64,000 bases of DNA from a candidate division Kazan bacterium RIFCSPHIGHO2_01_FULL_44_14 (GTDB taxonomy: Bacteria; Patescibacteriota; Kazan-3B-28): assembly GCA_001771185.1 (NCBI GenBank), contig METB01000001.1, forward strand, positions 5,875 through 69,874, written 5' to 3'. The notes beneath the pieces are model-generated. The model did no database searches. It was given only the letters and a program-made list of their open reading frames with translations, and was not told the origin of the DNA. Positions 1,795 to 63,257 of the stretch are shown piece after piece (position 1 is the stretch's first letter; every line of letters begins with the position of its first letter). Made by a program: the position numbers and the translations under genes.

Positions 1795-3246
1795 ATGAGT
1801 TTAAAACTTTTCAACACACTCGGTCGGAAGAAGCAGGAATTCAAGCCAATCAAACGTGGTCAGGTTTCGATGTACACCTGTGGACCGACGGTCTATCGGT
1901 CTGCGCACATTGGAAATCTGCGGGCTTATCTATCGGCGGATATTTTGCGGCGGACTTTAGAATATAACGGTTACAAGGTGAAGCAGGTGATGAATGTCAC
2001 GGATGTAGGCCATTTAGTATCTGATGCTGATACTGGTGAAGATAAAGTAGAGCGAGAGTCGAGAAAAACCGGTAAAACTGCTAAAGAAATTACCAAGTTT
2101 TATGCGGAGCAATTCGTAAAAGATATTAAGGCGTTGAATATCGAAATGCCGGTGAAGTTTGCTTGGGCGAGCAAATATATTAAAGAACAGATTGATTTAA
2201 TTAAGCGGCTGGAGAAAAAAGGTTATACCTATAAAACAGCTGACGGGATTTATTTTGATACGGCGAAATTTAAGGGATATGGGAAGCTTGGAACAAGCGG
2301 ATTAGCAGGTAAGCAGGTAAGCAGGGTAGCGCATAGTAAAGAAAAGAAAAGAGAGGCCGATTTTGCGTTGTGGAAATTTTCTGGCAAGGAAAAACGGCAG
2401 CAGGAGTGGAAATCTCCGTGGGGGGTGGGATTCCCCGGCTGGCATATTGAGTGTTCGGCAATTTCCACCAAAGAATTGGGCCAGCCGTTCGATATTCATA
2501 CTGGCGGGATTGATCATGTCTTGATTCACCACAATGATGAAATTGCGCAGAGCGAAGCAGCTTATGGTAAGCCGCTGGCCAATTTCTGGGTGCATAATGA
2601 ATTTTTGCTGATGAATGACAAAAAGATAGCTAAGAGTGCCAAGAATTTTTATACCTTGTCGGATATTATAAAATTAGGATTTGAGCCGTTGGTATTGCGG
2701 TATTTTATGATTTCTGGCCAATACAGCAGTAAATTGAATTTTTCGAAAGCGGCGTTAGAGGGGGCGCAAAATTCTCTCAATAAATTACAAGCAGTATTTA
2801 GCATCTCTGCCTCGTCATCACCGACTCGATCGGGGATCCAGAAAGGAAAAACAAAAATGGATTCCCGCCTTCGTGGGAATGACAAAGGGGGAGTGGACGC
2901 AACATACAAAAAACGCTTTTTGTCTGCTTTAAACGACAACCTAAATCTGCCGAAGGCGTTGGCGGTAGTTTGGGAGTTATTGAAGTCGAAAAAGTCGTTG
3001 GCGGACAAACAAGTTACTTTATTGGATTTCGATAAGGTTTTGGGATTGGGATTGAAAGATTATAAACCAGAGGGGATCCCCGCCGAAGTTAAAAAATTGG
3101 CAGCAGAGCGAGAAATTGCCCGAAAGAAAAAAGATTGGAGCAAAGCTGATCAACTAAGGCGGGTAAGCAAAGGGTATTGGAATACCAGACCGATGAGATG
3201 CAAATTCCGCCTCAAGATCCGTGGGACGGACTATACCGTTTCGTAA
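1795..3246 (+). CDS. cysS: Cysteinyl-tRNA synthetase; carries an in-frame repeat-derived insertion at about 2820-2890
   Basis: Class I aaRS: CGPTVY, HIGN, a Zn-binding Cys near WHIECS, and a KIAKS (KMSKS-like) motif. About 20 extra residues (SSSPTRSGIQKGKTKMDSRLRGNDKGG) are encoded by a palindromic repeat module. Confidence 0.9.
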   Translation: MSLKLFNTLGRKKQEFKPIKRGQVSMYTCGPTVYRSAHIGNLRAYLSADILRRTLEYNGYKVKQVMNVTDVGHLVSDADTGEDKVERESRKTGKTAKEITKFYAEQFVKDIKALNIEMPVKFAWASKYIKEQIDLIKRLEKKGYTYKTADGIYFDTAKFKGYGKLGTSGLAGKQVSRVAHSKEKKREADFALWKFSGKEKRQQEWKSPWGVGFPGWHIECSAISTKELGQPFDIHTGGIDHVLIHHNDEIAQSEAAYGKPLANFWVHNEFLLMNDKKIAKSAKNFYTLSDIIKLGFEPLVLRYFMISGQYSSKLNFSKAALEGAQNSLNKLQAVFSISASSSPTRSGIQKGKTKMDSRLRGNDKGGVDATYKKRFLSALNDNLNLPKALAVVWELLKSKKSLADKQVTLLDFDKVLGLGLKDYKPEGIPAEVKKLAAEREIARKKKDWSKADQLRRVSKGYWNTRPMRCKFRLKIRGTDYTVS

Positions 3247-3440
3247 TGTTTGATATCCCGGAACGGAAAAAGCTGGCGCGGGAGGTATTTCGCGGTAAGC
3301 TGGTCCAGCTGGGTTTTAAAAAGATTCAGTATAGCGTTTGGCGACATCAGTATCCCTGTCAGCGGGAAATTGAATTTCTGGTTCATCTTTATGGGATTGC
3401 TGGATATGTTGATGTCGTGGAGGGTAAAAAAATTTCGTAG
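3198..3440 (+). CDS. Cas2-like (Cas2/VapD fold) small protein, solo; overlaps the cysS 3' end
   Basis: The motif RFVMFDIPERKKLAREVFRGKLVQLGFKKIQYSVW matches the Cas2 beta1-Asp...YG.R.Q.SVF core. It is paralogous to the C-terminus of the ORF at 27501-28001. The ATG at 3198 (an alternative TTG lies at 3177) is in a different frame from cysS and overlaps it. Confidence 0.5.
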   Translation: MQIPPQDPWDGLYRFVMFDIPERKKLAREVFRGKLVQLGFKKIQYSVWRHQYPCQREIEFLVHLYGIAGYVDVVEGKKIS

Positions 3441-5578: not shown

Positions 5579-5652
5579 TCCCGGATCGTCTAGCGGCAGG
5601 ACACTTGGTTTTGGTCCAAGGAACCGGGGTTCGAATCCCTGTCCGGGAGCCA
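5579..5652 (+). tRNA. tRNA-Gln (anticodon UUG), CCA encoded
   Basis: Acceptor stem tcccgga/tccggga, a GGTTCGAATCC T-loop, an anticodon loop uuUUGgu, and a 3' gCCA. Confidence 0.8.
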
Positions 5653-6306: not shown

Positions 6307-6726
6307 ATGAAATATGTTTATTGGATTCTCGGTCTAGTGGTGTTGGCGGGAATTGGTTGGTTAGCATCTCAAAGTCAGCCGGTGATAAATAATTCAGCAG
6401 TCGAAACTGCCGAGGTTATCGTAAACAGTCCGACAGCGAATTCTACCATCACCAGTCCGCTGACGGTGAGCGGAACGGCAGTTGGAAATTGGTATTTTGA
6501 GGCGTCATTTCCAATCGAACTGTTAAATACTAGCAATCAAGTAGTTGGTACTGGTCTGGCTGAAGCGCAGAGTGATTGGATGACATCTAGTCCAGTCCCC
6601 TTTAATGCAAATATTATTTTTCCGACTCAAACCCCAGGCAGTAGTGGAAGTTTGGTACTGCACAAAGATAATCCGTCAGGCGATTCGCAGAATGACGATT
6701 CGTTTACTGTCCCGGTAATGTTCTAG
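6307..6726 (+). CDS. Secreted Gmad2-type Ig-like domain protein
   Basis: A signal anchor is followed by SPLTVSGTAVGNWYFEASFPIEL, typical of the Gmad2 immunoglobulin-like fold. Confidence 0.55.
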   Translation: MKYVYWILGLVVLAGIGWLASQSQPVINNSAVETAEVIVNSPTANSTITSPLTVSGTAVGNWYFEASFPIELLNTSNQVVGTGLAEAQSDWMTSSPVPFNANIIFPTQTPGSSGSLVLHKDNPSGDSQNDDSFTVPVMF

Positions 6727-14774: not shown

Positions 14775-14858
14775 CGTACTCTGTCATCCTGAACTTGTTT
14801 CAGGATCTGTTCTCTCGAGATTCCAAATTCCAACTTCTAAATTTTTATCTCTTCAAAC

Positions 14859-15266: not shown

Positions 15267-15698
15267 TTTTTGTTTTCTTTTTCAAGCGTTCTCACCGCGC
15301 TTGACCCGTTAGTATTTCTTCTCGTCATTGCGAGCTGTAGGCGTGGCAATCTAATCCTCCCCTTAAGATAAGGGGAGGATTAGGAAGGGTTATTGACTGA
15401 TTATATTCTTAACTCCCCCTTACTCCTCTTACCTTAAGAGGGGTGACCACAACTATTCATCACAAATCCTTCCGTGGTTCTACTATCTAGTAGAACAAAG
15501 GAGGACCTTTAACTGATTAATAGACAAGTCCTCATCCTAGGGCCAAAAAAAGAAGCAGGAAGCCAACTTGGTTGTTAAATTCTATGTGTAGTGGAAGGAA
15601 ACGGCCGTCTATTTATACAACACGGGGGAAGAAGTGGAATAGATTGATGAATCTGGCGTCTAAATTCGAGATTCTAAATCCCATATTCTAGATTTTAC

Positions 15699-18937: not shown

Positions 18938-19244
18938 TTGTTTTTAATTCGTAACGGGGGTTGGACTGCCAATGGCTAATATTTTTTAAGTCAAAGCAGT
19001 CCTTTTAATAGCCCTCGGAGGGAGACAACCAAAAAGGGTTTTCCCCCTTCCGACGACCGTCATCCGCCAACTGGCGGAGACGGATTGAATCAATATCTTA
19101 ATTTTGAAACATTCAGTCATTCGGATTTGATTCGAAGTTAGTCCGCCAGCTGGCGAATTGGAAATTAAATCTTCAAAAGCGTCAAAATGACGCCACCATA
19201 ACTTTTCACTATTCACTTTTAACTTTTAACTGACTTCTAACGGA

Positions 19245-22440: not shown

Positions 22441-22665
22441 TGTCATTCTGAATTTTCTGCCAACTGGCGGATCAGAATCTATTTAATTTCTTTCTGCCAC
22501 CATTTTACTCACCCAATATGCTTTTGCAACGCCACATTGCGTTGCATCAATGCCCGCTTTGTCTTGTCAAAGCTGGGTAAACCGCTGACCAACGTTCTCG
22601 GGTTTATTCATTGGCTAAATCCTCTTTCTGCTTTCCGCCTACTGGCGGAGGGGCAAACTCCTCCC
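22441..22665. repeat. About 225-bp dispersed repeat element, copy 1 (second copy at 46121-46340)
   Basis: The two copies share long near-identical blocks (ccaactggcggatcagaatctatttaatttc..., cttgtcaaagc, attcattggctaaat). Sub-modules ccgccaactggcgg and gccaccccatttg recur elsewhere. Confidence 0.65.
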
Positions 22666-23286: not shown

Positions 23287-23355
23287 TTTGCTCGATGGGT
23301 TCTACTAAGATATTCCCTGAGCGGAGTCGAAGGGGTACCATAACTTTTCACTATT

Positions 23356-23589
23356 CACTTTTAACTTTTAACTGTCCCCATATCTGATAATCAGCTCCCA
23401 GAGCCACTTTCTGCTTGACAGGATTCTGGTTCAGGAGTATACTCAGGGGGAATTATTGGTCGTTGAAAACTTGACGAAAAGCGCGACGTGACAGACCTGA
23501 TGGTCGGTCGCGAAAAGATACGTTGTTCTGGTAAGCACCTCTTCCTGGTCACTAAGAGGTGCATTGTTCTGAGATCCTAGGAGAGAGAA
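23356..23589 (+). promoter_or_regulatory. Duplicated promoter (TTGACA 23415-23420, N17, TATACT 23438-23443) plus a conserved ~150-nt leader, copy A
   Basis: Near-identical to 37606-37823 through the promoter, and about 75% identical through the leader (conserved core agacctgatggtcggtcgc-aaaagata). Confidence 0.55.
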
Positions 23590-25345: not shown

Positions 25346-25397
25346 AAAAAGTTAATTACCAATCACCAAATTCCAAATAACAAATGCAATCACTAAA

Positions 25398-27435: not shown

Positions 27436-27475
27436 CTCTTGCCCACTCTGACGACGGCCGTCGTCAGAATGGGCA
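27436..27475. repeat. 40-nt near-perfect palindrome (cttgcccactctgacgacggccgtcgtcagaatgggcaag); left flank of the Cas2-like cassette
   Basis: One mismatch from a perfect self-complement. Its core gacgacggccgtcgtc is repeated at 27966-27998. Confidence 0.65.
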
Positions 27476-27500: not shown

Positions 27501-28001
27501 ATGAGGACTTCAGGTGGAGCATATCGTTGGCTGATGAGGTTGATGTACGCGACGGATCCTAGATGGGAAGTGAAGGTGGACCGATCGCTCGATCACCGAT
27601 TCGGTAGTCGCCAACCAATTCGATCGCTACGAAGTTTCAGATATCTATGCTCAAAGGGGTACTTAACTCATCTGGAAGGAGATAGATATCAACTAACCGA
27701 TTTAGCGCGGATTAATCTCTTGCAGGAAATGGTTAAGCGGCGTAAGCCGGACGGCAAGTGGCGTGTGGTGGTATTCGACATCCCGGAAAAATTAAGACAA
27801 AATCGCAATGTCTTTCGGCACCATTTGATCAATTTGGGATTTAGGATGAAACAACAGAGTGTGTGGGTATCGCCTCTACCGTGTGAGGATTTGGTGGCAT
27901 TAGTGGTGAAGTACCACGGTTTAGGACAGTTTGTGGAGTTAATAGTAGGAAAAGATGTGCCCCTTAGGACGACGGCCGTCGTCAGAGTGGGCAGGGAATA
28001 G
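27501..28001 (+). CDS. wHTH + Cas2-like domain protein (PaaX-like architecture), solo
   Basis: C-terminal WRVVVFDIPEKLRQNRNVFRHHLINLGFRMKQQSVW matches the Cas2 beta1-Asp/SVF motif and is paralogous to 3198-3440. An N-terminal segment (GYLTHLEGDRYQLTDLAR) resembles a winged helix. It sits where rimM usually lies. Confidence 0.5.
   Translation: MRTSGGAYRWLMRLMYATDPRWEVKVDRSLDHRFGSRQPIRSLRSFRYLCSKGYLTHLEGDRYQLTDLARINLLQEMVKRRKPDGKWRVVVFDIPEKLRQNRNVFRHHLINLGFRMKQQSVWVSPLPCEDLVALVVKYHGLGQFVELIVGKDVPLRTTAVVRVGRE
27966..27998. repeat. Second copy of the gacgacggccgtcgtcagagtgggcagg palindrome, at the 3' end of the Cas2-like ORF
   Basis: Shares a 24-nt identical core with 27436-27475 and encodes the ORF C-terminus (TTAVVRVGRE). 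Confidence 0.6.
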
Positions 28002-28032: not shown

Positions 28033-28761
28033 ATGAAATATACGGTTATTACAATTTTTCCGCAGTTAATTGAAGATTATTTCCAGGAAGGGATTTTGTC
28101 TCGAGCTTTGCGGAACAAGCAGGTGGGATTGAAAACGATTAATCCGCGGAAATTTACCAAAGACCGACACCAAACGGTGGATGATATACCGTATGGCGGG
28201 GGAGCGGGACTCGTTATGAAGATTGAGCCGTTAGTAAAAGCGATTAAATCTGCAGCTAGGTCTCGTTTTCGTCATTCCGAACTTGTTTCGGAATCTAGTT
28301 CTAAAACGGAGAAGATCCTGAAACAAGTTCAGGATGACGGGAAAAAAGTAAGAATTATTTTGCTCGACCCAAGAGGCAAAAGATTTACGCAGAAAGAGGC
28401 GAAACGGTTAACGAAATATGATGAGTTGATTTTTGTGTGTGGAAGGTATGAGGGGGTGGATGAAAGAATTAAATATTACATCGACGAGAAGTTGTCGATC
28501 GGGGATTTTGTGCTAATGGGCGGGGAGTTGGGGGCGCTGACCATAATGGAATCCGTGGCGCGGTTAATCCCGGGGGTTCTGCACCATCCCGAGTCGGCAA
28601 AGTTTGAGAGTTTTTCTTTTGGGGATAATTTGGAACACCCGCAATACACTCGGCCGGAGGTATTCGAGGGGCATAAGGTGCCGAAAGTACTCTTGTCGGG
28701 ACATCATGGGAAGGTGGAGGAGTGGCGAGTAAAAAATGGTAAGAATAAGAGAGGAATCTAA
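28033..28761 (+). CDS. trmD: tRNA (guanine37-N1)-methyltransferase; carries an in-frame repeat insertion at about 28266-28340
   Basis: SPOUT-fold TrmD motifs (YGGGAGLVM, CGRYEGVDERI, GGEL). About 22 extra residues between the conserved blocks are encoded by two hairpin modules (ttccgaa-cttgt-ttcggaa and tcctgaa-acaag-ttcagga). Confidence 0.9.
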   Translation: MKYTVITIFPQLIEDYFQEGILSRALRNKQVGLKTINPRKFTKDRHQTVDDIPYGGGAGLVMKIEPLVKAIKSAARSRFRHSELVSESSSKTEKILKQVQDDGKKVRIILLDPRGKRFTQKEAKRLTKYDELIFVCGRYEGVDERIKYYIDEKLSIGDFVLMGGELGALTIMESVARLIPGVLHHPESAKFESFSFGDNLEHPQYTRPEVFEGHKVPKVLLSGHHGKVEEWRVKNGKNKRGI

Positions 28762-29009
28762 TCAATCTCACCAATCTGAACAATCTGTACCAATCTTTTG
28801 GTTAGATCCCTCGGCTTCGCTCGGGATGACAGAAAATTGGATAAATTGGTTAGATTCGCCCAGCAGGGCTAAAAGCTTGACTGGGGGCGATGATTCAGAT
28901 AGGGTGAGGGCGTTAGGTGGGCCTGTGATTTTCAGGGATATCAAACCACCAGCACCTTAACGACTAGGCAAAAATAGTTAGCCGGAAAGGTGAGTAAAAG
29001 GAGACTAAG

Positions 29010-29820: not shown

Positions 29821-30068
29821 AGAGCGCTACGCTAGATCCTTCGGCTTGCTTTGCTCGCTCAGGATGACAGAAGGAGGAGATAAGAATGACGAAAATGGAT
29901 CCTGAAACCCCTCGATAAACTCGGGATACTGTAAATTCAGGATGATGAGAGAGCGCTATGCTAGATTCTTCGCTACGCTCAGAGTGACAAAAGAGGGGCG
30001 GGAATGACGAGGATGGATCCTGAAACCCCTCGATAAACTCGGGATACTGTAAATTCAGGATGACGGGG
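29821..30068. repeat. Two tandem copies of a ~129-bp composite repeat upstream of uvrB
   Basis: Copy 1 runs 29821-29949 and copy 2 runs 29950-30068. They share an identical 49-mer (ggatcctgaaacccctcgataaactcgggatactgtaaattcaggatga). A related unit lies at 56090-56160. Confidence 0.7.
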
Positions 30069-30133: not shown

Positions 30134-32125
30134 ATGGCAAATAAATTTAAGATTAAGTCAAAATTGAAACCAGCCGGCGATCAGCCGACTGCCATCAAGC
30201 AGTTGGTGGAAGGTTTGAGTAAAAAATACCGCGACCAGACCTTGTTAGGTGTGACGGGGTCGGGGAAAACCTTCACGATGGCGAATGTAATCGAGAAAAC
30301 CCAAAAGCCGACCTTGGTAATTGTTCATAACAAAACTTTGGCGGCACAGTTAGCATCAGAATTTAGAGAATATTTTCCTGACAATGCGGTACATTATTTT
30401 GTATCGTATTACGACTACTATCAGCCGGAGGCGTATATTCCGCGGACGGATACTTATATCGCCAAGGATGCATCGATCAATGATGAAATAGATAGATTGC
30501 GAAATGCGGCGACCGAGGCGCTGTTAACCCGTAAAGATGTGATTATTGTGGCGTCGGTGTCGTGCATTTATGGCTTGGGCAACCCGGAGGTCTACAAAAA
30601 AGAAAGTATCGAACTGAAAGTGGGCAAGACCTACAAGCGGGAGCGGATTTTACGGCAACTGGCGGATATTCAATATCAACGCAACGATATCAACTTTATT
30701 CGGGGGACGTTTCGGGTGCGGGGCGAGATTTTAGAAATCTTTCCGGCGTATGCGGAAATGAGTTATCGGTTTGAGTGGTTTGGTGACAAATTGGAACGGA
30801 TTCGGCAGGTGGATTATTTGACTGGAGAAATTTTGGATGAACCGAAATCGGTGATAATTTTTCCGGCCAAACATTTTATTACTCCGCAAGAACGGTTGAA
30901 AAAAGCGATCGAACAAATTCGAGATGAACTGCGAGAGCGGTTGAAAGAATTTAAGGCCACCAGTAAATTACTGGAAGCCCAACGACTGGAACAGAGGACG
31001 AATTATGATATCGAAATGCTTCAAACGATTGGATATATTTCTGGAATTGAAAATTATTCCAGGTACTTGGATGGACGAAAACCGGGCAGCCCGCCTTCAA
31101 CTTTGCTCCATTATTTTCCCGACGATTTCTTGATGTTTATCGACGAATCGCATATGACTTTGCCGCAAATTCGGGGAATGTATAATGGTGACCGAGCCAG
31201 AAAAGAAGTTTTGATCGAACATGGATTCCGGTTGCCGAGTGCGTTTGACAATCGACCACTGCAGTTTCTGGAATTTGAAAAATTAGTTAATCAAGTAATT
31301 TATACTTCGGCCACTCCGAGCCAAGAGGAACTAAGTAACAGTAAGCAAATTGTCGAACAAATTGTCCGGCCAACTGGATTAGTTGATCCAGCGGTGGAGG
31401 TGCGGCCGATCGAGGGACAAGTGGACGACTTGATGGAAGAAATTCGTAAGCGAGTGAGTGTCCATCAGCGGGTGTTGGTGACAACGCTCACTAAAAAGAT
31501 GGCCGAAGACCTAACGGCGTTTTTGCAAGAAGCCGGAATTAAGGTGCAATATTTACATTCGGACGTGGAAACGCTGGAGCGAATCGATATTTTGCGAGAT
31601 TTGCGCCTGGGTAAATATGATGTGCTGGTGGGAATCAACTTGCTTCGCGAAGGATTGGACTTACCAGAAGTTTCGTTGGTGGCGATACTGGATGCTGACA
31701 AAGAGGGATTTTTGCGGTCTGACACGGCATTAATCCAAACCTTTGGTCGAGCGGCACGGCATTTGGACGGCAGAGTGATTATGTATGCTGACCATATTAC
31801 CGGCTCAATGCAACGAGCGATTGATGAGACCGATCGGCGACGCGAGAAACAAGTTGAATATAATAAACAGCATAAAATTACGCCGACGACGATTGTGAAG
31901 GCCATTAAATCAATTCATCAATCGAAAGAAAGTCCGCCAGTTGGCGGAATTCCGGACAAGGATGAGGTGAATAAGTTCGCTCGAGCGGCTAATGCTGAAG
32001 AATTGAAATCATTGCTTCGTGAGTTAGAAGACGAGATGGATTTGGCGGCGAAGAATCTGGAATTCGAAAAAGCAACGGAACTTCGTGACCGAGTGGAGAT
32101 GCTCAAGAATGAGATACGACAATAG
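30134..32125 (+). CDS. uvrB: Excinuclease ABC subunit B
   Basis: [10 protein letters not shown] Walker A, helicase motifs, and a C-terminal UvrB/UvrC-interaction helix. A small palindrome (ccgccagttggcgg) lies in the linker at about 31925. Confidence 0.95.
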
Positions 32126-32383
32126 GTATCCCCTCAGTTCTTCGGGGTAACAAAATTAAGATGACGGACGAAGATGGATTCCGGCCTGCCTGCCGGTAGG
32201 CGGGCTCAAGGCCGGAATGACATAAAGGGGTGGATTGCCACGCCGACGGCTCGCAATCACAAAAAAAGAGAACGGCTCGCAATCACATTTTCATACTTAC
32301 CCGCCTCTAAGGGCTGATACAAAACAACCAAACAGCAATTGGTGTAGATTGGTGAGATTGGATAAATTGGTTAGATTTGCGCG

Positions 32384-42760: not shown

Positions 42761-43617
42761 GTTAACCGTAATTTTTGGTTTCCCGAGGCACCGCCTGCCC
42801 ATCGAAGCCTTGGCGTAGTTGGGAGGGACTACCTTGATTTCTTTTGCCACCCCATCCGTCGGGATAATTTCTAATTTCTAATTTCTAATCAAATCCCAAT
42901 GACTGAATGTTTCAAAATTAAGATATTAAATCATTCACTCAATCCGTCAGCCCCAAAAGAAAGGGGGGTCTTAGACCCTGACGGACAAAATTACTTGCTG
43001 GGATACCATAACTTTTCACTATCCCTACAGGGTTGACGGGAATTAAATGGTGTGGTAACATAAAAATCGTTGTATCAGAGCGGTTCTGACACCTGACGGG
43101 ACGCTGTTATTTTGGCTGGTGAGTGGGACTCGCAGGGTTCCCCCGGCAAAAACCAAGAACCTCCGCTAAAAACTGGAATTTAAGCAAGATTCCAAGTTCA
43201 GGAGATAAGCTCTCGTTTAGTGAAAGGTGTACCGTACACGATACCTGTCTATGTTCATTGAGGTACGGGAGAGAGGAGGATATGCCGTCCAATGTTGTGG
43301 CGGAAATCAAATCCCTCCCAATTGTTCTGCTGCCAAAAGTAGCATTGCTCTGTTCTTCTCTTTTTTTGTCTCTCTTTTTTGTCCGTAAGGGCCTTGCGGG
43401 AGATCGAGACAATCGCCAGTAGTCCTGCGTTGGGGACATGGATGATTGTATGGACGCAGCGATGCTAACCTGGCTAGCGGATGATGGGGAGCAACTTCCC
43501 CTAACGCGCGCTTTTGGTCGCACCCGTTCTAATTGATGAAGCGAGTAGCGGAGCCAGGGTGGAGGGATGGCCACGAATTTCCGCCAGTCATCCTCTCGGC
43601 CAAAGCGAACAAGTAAG

Positions 43618-43651: not shown

Positions 43652-44057
43652 CATACAATTCAGATTGGTGAGATGGGTGAGAAAATGTTATAAAAAGAAA
43701 CGGCCGTCTATTTATAAAACATATTTTCTCTATAGGGTTGACACCGAATTCTGCTGTGGTAATCTGGTCGCGTTCCCTGCTGTTGGACTGTGAGTTTTGC
43801 CCTCCCCCCAAAGGAATCCCATAGGTCCGATATGCGGGTGAATTGTTCTTGAACCGGAAGCCGGCCATAATCTCTCAACTATAGTGCCAGATGTCTGGAA
43901 GCGATAGCATCATGCTGTGACCCAGAGGCATTTTATCAGTTGAAGGCCGCCATTGTCTGCTGAAGATATGGATGGCAAAATGACCGGTATAAATTAAGGG
44001 TCCCCATTGCGCAAGCTGGGGACCTGTTTTTATGTTCGGTCAGGCATAATAGAGGAG

Positions 44058-46106
44058 ATGACCTATAAGTTTTCAGCGAAGAATTTTCCTGACAAACCCG
44101 GTGTGTATTTGATGTACGGGGAGAGATTGCCGCGCTCCGCTCGCAATGACGAGAAGGGGCCAGTTTTGTATGTGGGGAAGGCCAAAAACTTGAAGAAGCG
44201 GCTAAGTTCTTATTTTCAAGGTAGCCTTTCGACTCGCTCCGCTCGCTTAGGGTCTAACGGCAAACTAGTCAGCCCCAAAACGATAGCATTGGTGGAGCGA
44301 ATCCATAAAATCGACACAATTGCAGTGAAGAATGAGCTCGAAGCGTTGTTGCTGGAAAATGAATTAATCAAAAAATATCGGCCAAATTTCAATGTGGTAA
44401 TGCGGGATGATAAATCGTATCTATATATTCGGATTACGGTTAATGAAGAATTCCCGCGAATTTTATTAGCTCGTAAAGTCGCCAAAGATGGGGCGAGATA
44501 TTTTGGGCCGTACGCCAGTTCGGGGCCGGTGTATGAGGGGTTGAAGTTGATCAATCGGACTTTCCCGGTCTGTACCGGCGTGGTGGGGCAAAAAAGAGCG
44601 TGCATGAATTATCATTTGAAGATTTGTCCAGGAGTGTGCGTGGGGCGAGTTAGTTCAAAGGAATATCGGAAGACCATCGATCAGGTGATGCGATTTTTGC
44701 ATGGCAACTATCCACCGGTGATTAAACAATTAAAGGCGGAAATGCAGCGGTTGTCGGCTAATCGGGAGTTTGAGCGGGCGGCGCGGATTCGAGATGGGCT
44801 GAAAGCGCTGGAGGCGATTAATGAACGGCAGAGCGTGGTGCGAGCCAACTTGTCGGTCAGTGAGGACGCGATTGGGGTAGCGCGAGAGCTGAATAAGGCA
44901 ATGGTAGTGCTGTTGCAGGTGCGGTCGGGTAAACTGCTTAATCAACAGCAATATGCGATCGATACTAAATATGAAACGGAACTGCCAGAGATTTTGGCGG
45001 GGTTTTTGCGGGATTATTATAGCGAGGCAGCGGACTTGCCAAAGACGATTTTGTTACCGGAAATGATTGAGGGAAATGAAGCGTTTGAAAGGTGGCTGAC
45101 TAATTTGACTGGTAAAGCTATCGGATTGAAAGTTCCGGCCAAGGGTCGGCAGCGGGCAATAGTCAGATTGGCGCAGTCAAATGCCCAAATGAAATTCAAT
45201 CAAATTTCCGGACGCTGGAAATTGGAAAAAGTAGTGGCGACCGAAGGAGTGAAGGGGTTGAAGAAAATCCTAAAGCTAAAAAAAATCGAGCGGATTGAGG
45301 CCTATGATATCTCCAACCTGCAGGGTACCGATTCGGTCGGGGCGATGGTGGTGTGGGAAAAGGGGCAACTGGATAAAAAACAATATCGCAGGTTTAAGAT
45401 CAAAACCGTAGTTGGTCCGAATGATTTTGCATCGTTGGCCGAGGTACTGAAACGGAGATTTGCATATCTTTCTTCTTCGGTCATCCCCGTCTCTCCTTCC
45501 GTCATTCCCAGGAAGGCGGGAATCCAGATAAAAAAAGACAACAAAGGTAGTCCCTTCCTCCTTCGCCCAAGCCGACTACGCTCTACAAGCTACGACAGGC
45601 CAAGGGCTACGGGCGGGCAGGCGGTTCCTCGGGATGGCAAAACTACCGATGGCAGTTTTGTTGTTTTGCCTGACGTGGTCTTGATTGATGGCGGTAAAGG
45701 ACAAGTTAACACGATTGCGAGGGTATTGAAAGATTACAAAGTGGCGGTGATTGGGATTGCTAAAGGTAGTCATAGTCGGACAAAAGCTAGGGATGAGCTG
45801 ATATTATGGAAGCATTCCTCCTTCGCCAAGGCTTCGGAGGATCTGCGAGATAATTCGCCGACCAAAATGTTGTTGCAGAACATTCGGGATGAAGTGCATC
45901 GCTTTGCTGTCGCATATCACACAAGTTTGCGTAAAAAACGCACGATCACCTCTGGGTTAGAAAAAATTGCTGGGATTGGGGCAGTAACGCGCAAGAAGTT
46001 AATTAAAGCATTTGGGAGTATGGCTGGAGTTAGGGCCGCGTCCGCGGGGGAGATTGCGAAAGTGGTAGGGGAAAATTTAGCGAAAAAAATTAAAGATTCT
46101 TTTTAA
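44058..46106 (+). CDS. uvrC: Excinuclease ABC subunit C; carries a ~55-aa in-frame repeat-derived insertion at about 45470-45660
   Basis: GIY-YIG (PGVYLM...YVGKAKNL), UvrBC-interaction region, RNaseH-like domain (VVLIDGGKGQ) and a (HhH)2 C-terminus. The insertion SSSVIPVSPSVIPRKAGIQIKKDNKG... is encoded by the same module found in cysS, in inverted orientation. Confidence 0.9.
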   Translation: MTYKFSAKNFPDKPGVYLMYGERLPRSARNDEKGPVLYVGKAKNLKKRLSSYFQGSLSTRSARLGSNGKLVSPKTIALVERIHKIDTIAVKNELEALLLENELIKKYRPNFNVVMRDDKSYLYIRITVNEEFPRILLARKVAKDGARYFGPYASSGPVYEGLKLINRTFPVCTGVVGQKRACMNYHLKICPGVCVGRVSSKEYRKTIDQVMRFLHGNYPPVIKQLKAEMQRLSANREFERAARIRDGLKALEAINERQSVVRANLSVSEDAIGVARELNKAMVVLLQVRSGKLLNQQQYAIDTKYETELPEILAGFLRDYYSEAADLPKTILLPEMIEGNEAFERWLTNLTGKAIGLKVPAKGRQRAIVRLAQSNAQMKFNQISGRWKLEKVVATEGVKGLKKILKLKKIERIEAYDISNLQGTDSVGAMVVWEKGQLDKKQYRRFKIKTVVGPNDFASLAEVLKRRFAYLSSSVIPVSPSVIPRKAGIQIKKDNKGSPFLLRPSRLRSTSYDRPRATGGQAVPRDGKTTDGSFVVLPDVVLIDGGKGQVNTIARVLKDYKVAVIGIAKGSHSRTKARDELILWKHSSFAKASEDLRDNSPTKMLLQNIRDEVHRFAVAYHTSLRKKRTITSGLEKIAGIGAVTRKKLIKAFGSMAGVRAASAGEIAKVVGENLAKKIKDSF

Positions 46107-46120
46107 TTACTTTTCTTTTT

Positions 46121-46340
46121 TGTCATCCTGGATTTTCCGCCAACTGGCGGATCAGAATCTATTTAATTTCTTTTGCCACCCCATTTGTTTGTAATCTTTT
46201 TGACCGCGGAATGGCGGTCAATCCATTCCCGCTTTGGCTTGTCAAAGCGGGGCAAAACGCTGGCCTGTGTTCGTCGGGTCTATTCATTGGCTAAATTGCT
46301 AGGCGCTCTCGGCGGACTAAACCGCCTCCGCCCTAGTCGC
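46121..46340. repeat. About 225-bp dispersed repeat element, copy 2
   Basis: See 22441-22665. Confidence 0.65.
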
Positions 46341-52102: not shown

Positions 52103-54591
<2,489 letters not shown>

Positions 54592-54659
54592 TGTGATACA
54601 TTCAGGCGTCAGTTTTTAGTGTTCTTTTACATGTTGTATTGTTACATCACTGGGAGGTG

Positions 54660-55136
54660 AGTGTATTGTCAGGTAAGAGCAAGGAAGGGGGCAGAGCCGA
54701 TGGGGAGCAAAAATTATCCCTTTCAATGACCACGAAGGTGGGCGGAACGGTGAGGGATTATCTTGAAGTATTCCCACTAGAAGCGAAGATTGCCGATGTG
54801 GCACCTGGGCTAACAGTGTCGTATGCGGAGCCCGAAATGACGGTAGGGGAATATCTGAAAAGGTATCCATACAGATCACAGGGTCGATTTAAACAAAGTC
54901 ATCTAGGGTTCCCAGATCCAAAAGTTCCTACCATTCCGAGACAGACAGCATCTAACTGGACCAATGACAGGGAACACTGCGAACATTTTCGCGAAGAGCG
55001 CTGTATCATTAATGGCGTGTGGATTGGTCAATGCATGATTGATCGGTGCGCAAACCGCCCCGACCTTAGAAGCCACCAGCCGACAGCGCAATCTGAACAA
55101 GTGCATTCCGAGGGGGTGATGACGAGTGGAACGTAA
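54660..55136 (+). CDS. Orphan Cys-rich hypothetical protein (GC-elevated cassette 5a)
   Basis: GTG start after a GGGAGG RBS. No recognisable domain. Confidence 0.35.
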   Translation, partial: SVLSGKSKEGGRADGEQKLSLSMTTKVGGTVRDYLEVFPLEAKIADVAPGLTVSYAEPEMTVGEYLKRYPYRSQGRFKQSHLGFPDPKVPTIPRQTASNWTNDREHCEHFREERCIINGVWIGQCMIDRCANRPDLRSHQPTAQSEQVHSEGVMTSGT

Positions 55137-56075: not shown

Positions 56076-56163
56076 CTTTTCTGTCATCCTGAACTTGTTT
56101 CAGGATCTAGGTGCTGAAACCCCTCGGTAAATTCGGGACATTGTAAGTTCAGCATGACAGAGT

Positions 56164-62262: not shown

Positions 62263-62387
62263 GTTAAAAATAGTATGCTCGGGCATACCAGAATAAATAA
62301 CAAATATCAAATGACAAACAAATTCCAAATTTCAAATACCAAACCAAATACCAAGTTCTAAACAAGATAAACAAGAAAGGAAACAAA

Positions 62388-62918: not shown

Positions 62919-63257
62919 CTGGGGCAATAATCAATAACCGAGCACCGAATCTCAAATAAGGAGATATCTACTTAGGACTTCGCACAAGATACATTGTGCG
63001 ACATTGTCTATCTTGGTCTCTTGGACCATCCCGAGTGTAGCCGAGGGACCTCCCCCGCCGAATATAAAAATGTCATTTCGAGCGTAGTCGAGAAATCTAT
63101 GTAGATTCTGAAACAAGTTCAGAATGACTAAATAGGTATCACTCCCCCGTTTACGGGTATCGCCCTTAAACAATACGCTCCCAGAGCGATATTTAACTAA
63201 TTTATAGGTGGTTTTAATATGAAAAAGCCCACCATAGTACTGGTGGGCTAAGAGTTG

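Follow-up and report, generated by a model that had tools for sequence, protein, structure and literature searches.

The 64,000-nucleotide window analysed here (contig METB01000001.1, positions 5,875 to 69,874 of the forward strand) comes from the candidate division Kazan bacterium RIFCSPHIGHO2_01_FULL_44_14, whose annotated UvrC is 100% identical to the one encoded here, and copies of short hairpin-forming repeats have very probably entered coding loops of its cysS, trmD, uvrC and ligA genes and, marginally, of uvrB, surviving where they are tolerated. On their architecture and encoded peptides, the repeats are classed as members (CGTC-1, CGTC-2 and variants) of the CGTC-tagged superfamily of repetitive extragenic palindromes (REPs) described by Di Nocera, De Gregorio and Rocco (2013, BMC Genomics 14:522; PMC3733652).

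Palindromic repeats within essential genes

The five open reading frames (ORFs) are intact and NCBIfam-identified (cysS, 1795-3246; trmD, 28033-28761; uvrB, 30134-32125; uvrC, 44007-46106; ligA, 52112-54205). Insert limits were set by alignment with Kazan-clade orthologs, using relatives from a protein collection and DNA for syntenic loci; TrmD and CysS relatives also carry Patescibacteria or Kazan labels. Between 25 and 64 residues in cysS, trmD, uvrC and ligA lack a counterpart in related Kazan-clade genomes. The original prediction that intergenic palindromic modules also lie in frame within essential genes, at loops, held for these four genes, which are intact here and have empty orthologs. 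Checks proposed with it also came out in its favour: the extra segments are absent in relatives and map to loops, every insert is in frame and free of stop codons, and the inserts are not assembly artefacts because the independent assemblies L087, L088 and L090 carry them too, in addition to the ORFs being intact. The intragenic features are as follows.

2813..2840, plus strand: cysS, CGTC REP unit, first half of a head-to-head dimer, CGTC-ATCACCGA-CTCGA-TCGGGGAT-CCA, with an 8-bp stem and a 5-nt loop
2858..2884, minus strand: cysS, CGTC-1 REP unit, second half of the dimer, TGTC-ATTCCCAC-GAAG-GCGGGAAT-CCA, translating to DSRLRGND
28264..28338, plus strand: trmD, insert of exactly 25 codons, a dimer of two CGTC-2 units translating to RFRHSELVSESSSKTEKILKQVQDD
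44121..44153, minus strand: uvrC site a, in the GIY-YIG domain, a ATTGCGAG-type CGTC unit translating to ERLPRSARNDE
44220..44270, plus strand: uvrC site b, 17 additional residues (GSLSTRSARLGSNGKLV) beginning with GGTAGC and not found in most relatives
45465..45656, plus strand: uvrC site c, the main insert, a 64-aa stretch (~57 net)
45807..45845, plus strand: uvrC site d, palindromic TCCTCC-TTCGCCAAGGCTTC-GGAGGA translating to WKHSSFAKASEDL, where relatives have a shorter segment
52433..52549, plus strand: ligA, insert of 39 codons, a head-to-head CGTC dimer between domain Ia and the adenylation domain
31934..31945, plus strand: uvrB, insert of 4 codons (PPVG) within the palindrome CCGCCAGTTGGCGG

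The TrmD linker between '...KAIK..TK' and 'RIILLDPRGK' has 34 residues in the window versus 9 in 212-aa relatives, and comparison with syntenic L081 DNA gives a size difference of exactly 25 codons. Its two units, 28270-28297 (plus strand) and 28312-28339 (minus strand), face head-to-head across a 14-nt spacer; an example of a trmD unit is CGTC-ATTCCGAA-CTTGT-TTCGGAAT-CTA. Repeat identity was assessed by BLAST of each insert against the remaining window, which gave 26/26 identical nucleotides for trmD with the intergenic copies at 14783 and 56083. Relative to a solved TrmD structure, the insertion point lies between residues 78 and 82, and residues 81-101 of the AlphaFold model (mean pLDDT 71) are coil with pLDDT <50 between helix 64-79 and strand 106-117. 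A canonical CTA-tailed CGTC-2 unit has only two open frames and reads TAG in the frame used by trmD, where the trmD copy has CTT (lysine); of the six frames of a CGTC-1 unit, five are open. Retention of frame, lack of stops and the CTT in place of TAG are expected only if ribosomes read through the inserts.

The cysS insert (limits 2800-2889, 30 aa) occupies a site at which most relatives read 'D-EK-T.GG', and relatives with an empty site have 448-457 aa. The plus-strand unit translates to SSPTRSGIQ and is missing from the L082 ortholog and most CysS relatives. As originally predicted, the cysS module ATGGATTCCCGCCTTCGTGGGAATGAC recurs inverted in uvrC: its reverse complement is present there with 2 mismatches in 27 nt (0 expected from shuffles), and BLAST aligns the two inserts at 25/26 nt. 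The CysS model places residues 338-362 in coil (pLDDT <50), flanked by helices 318-339 and 369-380. A segment of comparable length is present at this point in a Borrelia CysS structure, so the region varies in general.

CysS also varies elsewhere. Its C-terminal ~25 residues (after ...ADQLR; window 3160-3440) are unlike those of all relatives, even one that is 96% identical, and the divergent 3' end overlaps a partial second PaaX/Cas2-like ORF (3177-3440), which suggests replacement of the cysS 3' end via deletion or insertion. At 2320-2360 the window reads 'TSGLAGKQV' where P0121, P0130 and P0141 read 'APLRQGFGGSSSR', and this spot resembles the FAKASED/LRQGFGG-type palindromic module peptide of uvrC site d. 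P0129, P0130, P0141 and P0143 share a ~55-residue insert with two CxxC pairs (zinc-ribbon-like) just before KMSKS, which the window CysS does not have.

UvrC relatives with empty sites have 589-609 aa. An insert predicted at 45470-45660 was confirmed at 45465-45656 (site c), but it is one of four sites rather than the only one, sites a, b and d being additional. Site a matches the intergenic copy at 15318-15335 at 18/18 nt, and in P0242/L085 it holds a different head-to-head dimer. Site b may be a degenerate GTAG-type module, an assignment made with low confidence. Within site c, a CGTC unit that is either truncated or an outer one (45479...) is followed by a CGTC-1 unit (45500-45526), which encodes VIPRKAGIQ, and then by a spacer and a GGTAG-tagged module (45546-45640) with its loop expanded to ~70 nt within the reading frame; site c matches 42781-42800 at 19/20 nt and maps between residues 80 and 84 of the Thermotoga maritima UvrC endonuclease-domain structure 2nrt.

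LigA has 697 aa here versus 658-660 aa in three relatives, a single 39-residue block accounting for the difference at a position equivalent to E. coli LigA residues 99-110, the junction of domain Ia and the adenylation domain. The plus-strand unit (52443-52468) is ATCCTGG-CTTGC-CCAGGAT, and the minus-strand unit (52482-52516) pairs ATTCTGG and CCAGAAT around a 14-nt loop, with ~30 additional nt after the dimer. For uvrB, a probable insert had been predicted, and the evidence divides: its palindrome matches 46135-46151 at 17/17 nt, but the insert is only 4 codons long. The same palindrome is also nested in intergenic CGTC-unit loops, and pure chance was dropped as an explanation, the 17 nt being common to intergenic modules. 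A UvrB scan of the genome collection gave best matches of 60-68% identity from many phyla and no close relative, UvrB being too conserved for this purpose.

Six control coding segments gave no BLAST match to the rest of the window. Alignments with PDB structures and structural models (coil, pLDDT <50) show the inserts in loops predicted to tolerate added residues. The intragenic dimers fold into single long hairpins (trmD, -38.2 kcal/mol, z = -7.9; ligA, -31.9 kcal/mol, z = -4.4; cysS, -27.5 kcal/mol, z = -3.5), with control z from -2.1 to +1.0; as RNA, single uvrC units fold no better than shuffles (z = -1.7, +0.3 and +0.7).

Large window-specific inserts were found in 4/26 orthologous gene pairs compared systematically with related loci, namely cysS, trmD, uvrC and ligA; topA, uvrA, IF-2, dprA, gatA and the remaining compared genes have none. 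The earlier reasoning that inserts in five of five inspected genes imply a genome-wide phenomenon therefore reflects ascertainment bias, arising from which genes were inspected.

Repeat population and unit architecture

A repeat search of the window returned dozens of families of short repeats, direct and inverted, the majority in spacers. Hairpins of the form GTCAT-stem-loop-stem number 24 in the window versus 6.2 (maximum 12) in shuffles, and hairpin density is 2.7 per 10 kb, compared with 0.47 in 80 unrelated genomes (1.4 Mb) and 0.46 in the compact relative L083. Hairpin scans and spacer reading, partly by eye, identified ~29 credible units: ~19 in ~11 kb of spacers and 10 in ORFs (cysS, 2; trmD, 2; uvrC, 3; ligA, 2; hypothetical ORF 54639-55136, 1), spacers being ~8-fold denser. 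The syntenic block from uvrB to gatA (window 30134-57516) spans 27.4 kb here versus ~20.6 kb in L083, and since this excess is mostly repeat-filled spacer, repeat load differs greatly among related Kazan genomes. An Rfam scan of the window at gathering threshold returned one match only, a tRNA gene (5579-5649). Intergenic CGTC units include the following.

14782..14809, plus strand: CGTC-2 unit, 26 nt identical to the trmD minus-strand unit
Near 1690, 1757, 15323, 19058, 22381, 22441, 24066 and 28803: further intergenic copies
Near 29836-30065, 32175, 46121, 56082-56160 and 63071-63129: further intergenic copies

CGTC REPs are defined by a terminal CGTC, often TGTC (CCTC also occurs), stems of 8-9 bp in which complementary A and T almost always come first, loops that measure 4 nt in CGTC-1 and 5 nt in CGTC-2 to CGTC-4 but are sometimes longer, and tails that are mostly CCA; most form head-to-head dimers with the tags outermost, tail-to-tail dimers being rare (PMC3733652). 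Among 31 candidate units in the window, the tag is CGTC in 11 and TGTC in 13 (24/31 combined), and all nine cysS, trmD, uvrC and ligA units carry CGTC, TGTC or GGTC. Stems are 7-10 bp and every one starts AT...AT (8 bp in the trmD and cysS units, 7 bp in ligA). Loops are most commonly 5 nt (CTTGT in trmD, CTCGA in cysS, CTTGC in ligA), with the 4-nt GAAG in the cysS minus-strand unit, and longer loops are accounted for by nested palindromes. The commonest tails among the 31 candidates are CCA (8 units) and CTA (6 units). Six head-to-head dimers were found (cysS, trmD, ligA, 1690/1757, 56082/56110 and 63071/63102), with no tail-to-tail dimer among window units and one tandem cluster at 29836-30065.

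The encoded peptides VIPRKAGIQ (UvrC), MDSRLRGND (CysS) and RHSELVSES (TrmD) match published CGTC-1 and CGTC-2 peptides. Supplementary CGTC-1 examples are VIPAKAGI, DSRLRGND and SIPAKAGIQ...DSRLRGNA, together with the CGTC-1 dimer peptide SIPAKAGIQTGPSMDSRLRGNA in a Micavibrio DNA polymerase I family protein, and RHSELVSGS is a CGTC-2 peptide of Sulfurovum (PMC3733652 supplement). A perfect-stem CGTC-1 unit shares 26-27/27 nt with copies in Azospirillum, Sphingobium, Legionella, Neisseria and Cupriavidus replicons, and one of these copies sits within an ileS gene. Intragenic REPs were reported to favour replication and repair genes (uvrA/B/C, DNA ligase, polymerases) and tRNA-synthetase genes, with more than half of the inserts being dimers or groups that encode 20-30 aa (PMC3733652).

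A second family has the form aGGTAG-(T/C)CCCTC-loop-TCGGG(G/A)-aaCAA. Its intergenic copies comprise four short and three expanded-loop forms, in addition to the one in uvrC:

32123..32156, plus strand: GGTAG/GGTAT stem-loop module of 34 nt (repeat family D13), with the uvrB stop codon TAG as its first three bases
24118, 39189 and 37137 (minus strand): other short copies
22371, 37553 and 42833, all minus strand: expanded-loop copies

GTAG REPs that supply stop codons have already been described (PMC3733652). Nesting recurs across the window: the uvrB palindrome, CCGCCAACTGGCGG, lies inside CGTC-unit loops at 22441 and 46121, the loop of unit 22381 has 29 nt versus 10 nt in its relative at 15323 (+19 nt), and units 30014 and 56110 have another hairpin inside the loop. 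Hairpin loops themselves serve as insertion targets, in spacers and coding sequence alike.

Conservation and turnover of intragenic units

Two gene pairs were used to compare the conservation of units with that of their host genes. The trmD units are identical to those of L087 at 55/56 nt versus 79.6% for the remaining gene, and at third codon positions at 18/18 versus 61% (Fisher p = 1e-4); differences within the insert are three in the 14-nt spacer and one in a loop. The cysS units match L088 at 51/56 nt versus 75.5% for the remaining gene (p = 0.006). Each cysS unit has one stem mismatch in the window and none in L088, where the stem is perfect, and the CGTC-1 unit of L089 cysS holds 30 additional nt (10 codons) in its loop with the frame preserved.

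A different history is recorded in uvrC. L090 and the window represent near-identical strains, with 100% identity over ~150 nt on each side of the uvrC insert. The L090 CGTC unit is one perfect hairpin, GGTC-ATCCCGCCAT...ATGGCGGGAT-CCA, whereas the window unit keeps that outer frame around a different interior, which is 12 nt longer and includes a nested CGTC-ATTCCC...GGGAAT unit. This in-frame replacement of the interior between the two strains is very recent. By contrast with the recently changed uvrC unit, the dimers in trmD and cysS are older and have been conserved.

In a rough neighbour-joining tree of TrmD, built with the linker columns left out, the 9-residue empty state is scattered, and differing fills stand beside empty sisters in at least 7 places; P0007, for example, has a fill reading IASSSKTSRND and MDSRLRGND. 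The TrmD loop has clearly been filled several times independently by different REP types.

Proposed route and alternative explanations

Under the proposed and best-supported scheme, repeats, mostly head-to-head dimers of ~70 bp that fold as one hairpin, would enter coding sequence after a unit or dimer is copied to a fresh site or into a hairpin loop that already exists, presumably through a single-strand hairpin intermediate, the agent being an enzyme or else gene conversion or template switching between copies. Selection would then purge coding insertions that break the frame, bring a stop or disturb the fold, so that survivors would have a length that is a multiple of three, a stop-free frame and a loop that accepts 10-60 disordered residues. 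From survival under these terms it follows that CysS, TrmD, UvrC, LigA and, marginally, UvrB would be made with REP-encoded peptides in surface loops. The inserts are probably mostly neutral passengers.

Several observations weigh against this account. The ligA units have no second copy by BLAST in the 64-kb window, CTA tails are commoner here than the published CCA consensus suggests, and several stems, at 7 bp, fall short of the published 8-9 bp. Translation of the inserts is something that we infer from sequence. A Pfam scan of 20 otherwise unassigned ORFs in the window found no transposase or mobilizing enzyme. Finally, the trmD and cysS units exceed their host genes in conservation, an outcome not expected if they were purely neutral passengers; this excess may come from hairpin selection or from concerted evolution. 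As for ligA, its stem variant GTCATYCTGGCTTGYCCAGRATC was found in L082 and L088, both related Kazan loci, and in 0/80 unrelated genomes, and the insert is called repeat-derived because of its architecture and these two copies.

One alternative holds that units are not transposed at all: palindromes would grow locally by template-switching or fold-back replication errors, and variants would spread by gene conversion. New palindromes at hairpin apices, both intergenic and coding, fit such growth, as do the retained outer frame and replaced interior of the uvrC unit, the lack of a transposase in the window ORFs scanned and the lack of one reported for CGTC REPs (PMC3733652). However, units identical over 26 nt lie at the distant, unrelated sites 14783, 28313 and 56083, and one 27-nt unit is common to several phyla, so copy transfer between loci is needed; the conserved tag and tail also resemble recognition signals. 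We regard local growth as possible but doubtful as the full explanation.

Selection of the intragenic hairpins as functional nucleic-acid elements, for example in mRNA stability, translational pausing or protein binding, would account for trmD and cysS units being more conserved than their host genes and for dimers folding far better than shuffles (z -3.5 to -7.9). Yet the inserts are wholly absent in many close relatives and are thus not required, both cysS units of the window have a stem mismatch where L088 has none, and the uvrC unit changed its interior from one near-identical strain to the other. High conservation would also be expected from concerted evolution with copies elsewhere in the genome, and the support comes from two gene pairs only; a functional role is unlikely on this evidence. 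A combined version, in which the intragenic hairpins are selected at the nucleotide level and still rewritten by an active hairpin-directed mechanism that adds palindromes at loop apices, is likewise put forward with little confidence. If it is true, a 27-nt unit common to organisms from Alphaproteobacteria through the Candidate Phyla Radiation (CPR) would point to inter-phylum spread or a universal host recognition factor, and a genome of ~700 genes would be the smallest known search space for the enzyme that mobilizes CGTC REPs.

It is very improbable that the extra segments are ancestral low-complexity linkers lost in relatives, with coincidental palindromes: the length of the CysS region does vary across bacteria, as the Borrelia segment illustrates, but the inserted DNA has matches among the intergenic repeats, empty TrmD loops are dispersed across the tree and different clades have different fills, and the peptides equal REP-encoded peptides of unrelated phyla. 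Although CPR genomes carry intervening sequences in rRNA genes, removal of the inserts before the mature protein forms (intron- or intein-like) and assembly artefact are scarcely credible, given the preserved frame, the lack of stops, one tail mutated away from TAG, the lack of intein or group I/II intron signatures, Rfam matches to tRNA alone and the recurrence of the inserts in independent assemblies. Integron attC sites were also considered and dropped, their conserved ends being different.

Relation to known repeat systems

With published CGTC REPs, the window units share the tag, the AT-starting stem, the 4-5 nt loop, the 3-nt tail and the head-to-head dimers. Both are mainly intergenic, with an intragenic minority in uvr, ligase and tRNA-synthetase genes. 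No dedicated transposase has been reported for CGTC REPs (PMC3733652), and none was found among the 20 otherwise unassigned ORFs scanned in the window, which covers 64 kb of a ~700-kb genome. They differ in that the host here belongs to the CPR (Kazan), many loops are expanded by nested palindromes, and density is very high for a genome of ~0.7 Mb.

The likeness to Rickettsia palindromic elements (RPEs) drawn in the original prediction is apt, as RPE-4 and RPE-6 belong to the CGTC-tagged superfamily: in Rickettsia conorii, CGTC-1 is RPE-6 and CGTC-4 is RPE-4 (PMC3733652), and uvrC holds a CGTC-1 unit (PMC3733652 supplement). Both systems place palindromic repeats in frame in unrelated essential genes at sites predicted to be compatible with the fold. 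Classical RPEs such as RPE-1 (Ogata et al. 2000, 2002, as summarised in PMC10969869) measure ~100-150 bp, with a conserved encoded peptide of 30-50 aa, a size larger than that of the units (26-35 bp) and dimers (68-78 bp) found here. The Kazan host, moreover, is not an obligate intracellular alphaproteobacterium.

REPINs (Bertels and Rainey 2011, PMC3116915), paired REPs in inverted orientation, are characterized (PMC3733652) as almost wholly extragenic and tied to a gene for a REP-associated tyrosine transposase (RAYT; IS200/IS605-type, Y1 HUH). In REPINs two inverted units form one long hairpin that is the likely mobile unit, and the dimers here fold likewise; the GGTAG tag of the window's second family similarly recalls the GTAG REPs of REPIN/RAYT systems. 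The main family here is CGTC-tagged, in contrast, and no RAYT was found in the 64-kb window.

Miniature inverted-repeat transposable elements invite comparison in that the ends of the head-to-head dimers are inverted copies, GTCAT...ATGAC. The trmD and cysS junctions show no evident direct duplication, although filled and empty alleles are too far apart (73-83% protein identity) for certainty, and no parent insertion sequence was seen in the window. The small dispersed repeats (SDRs) of Nostoc punctiforme, attributed to Elhai et al. (2008, Genome Research), reportedly are tiny hairpins that keep their structure while the stems vary by compensatory changes, with nested copies and associated heptamer tandem repeats. 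Nesting and heptamer arrays occur here too, whereas the sequences and the host phylum differ, and we know of no in-frame occupation of essential genes as an SDR feature.

The heptamer arrays in the window correspond to repeat families D1, D2, D7 and D10. Built of 7-nt units (AATxxCC/AAATxxC, CTTTTxA and AATCTxA), they occupy spacers at 25354-25384, 19195-19232, 23337-23374, 28755-28786, 62292-62343 and others.

The searchable literature yielded no report of REP, miniature inverted-repeat or palindromic repeats of this sort in CPR. The claim of novelty therefore stands for CPR/Patescibacteria but not for the class of element, because the 2013 paper already described it, including the bias towards uvr, ligase and tRNA-synthetase genes, in five other phyla (Proteobacteria, Chlorobi, Bacteroidetes, Spirochaetes and Thermotogae; CPR not among them; PMC3733652). 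New are the host phylum, the recurrent independent filling of the TrmD loop, nesting in hairpin loops including those in coding sequence, the in-frame interior swap between near-identical strains, and intragenic units more conserved than their host genes. These results extend CGTC REPs and RPE-like behaviour as selfish DNA inside genes to the CPR, usually seen as streamlined. They also carry a warning for annotation and phylogenetics, in that additional segments of CPR housekeeping proteins can be repeat-derived and gained in parallel, and a small genome with evidence of recent turnover is a place to seek the machinery that moves CGTC REPs.

Genes neighbouring trmD

A PaaX_M/Cas2-like ORF (27501-28001) lies between a KH-domain gene and trmD; it is present in L087 and absent from that position in L081. 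Near-identical 36-nt perfect palindromes, TGCCCACTCTGACGACGGCCGTCGTCAGAATGGGCA, flank it at 27440-27475 and 27958-27993, the latter within the 3' end of the ORF, and the whole looks like an inserted cassette. Near trmD in relatives, a bAvd and reverse transcriptase pair (L081, 5627-7096; L087, 3318-4771) forms an arrangement like that of diversity-generating retroelements, and the L081 reverse transcriptase ORF contains a perfect CGTC-1 unit (6579-6601).

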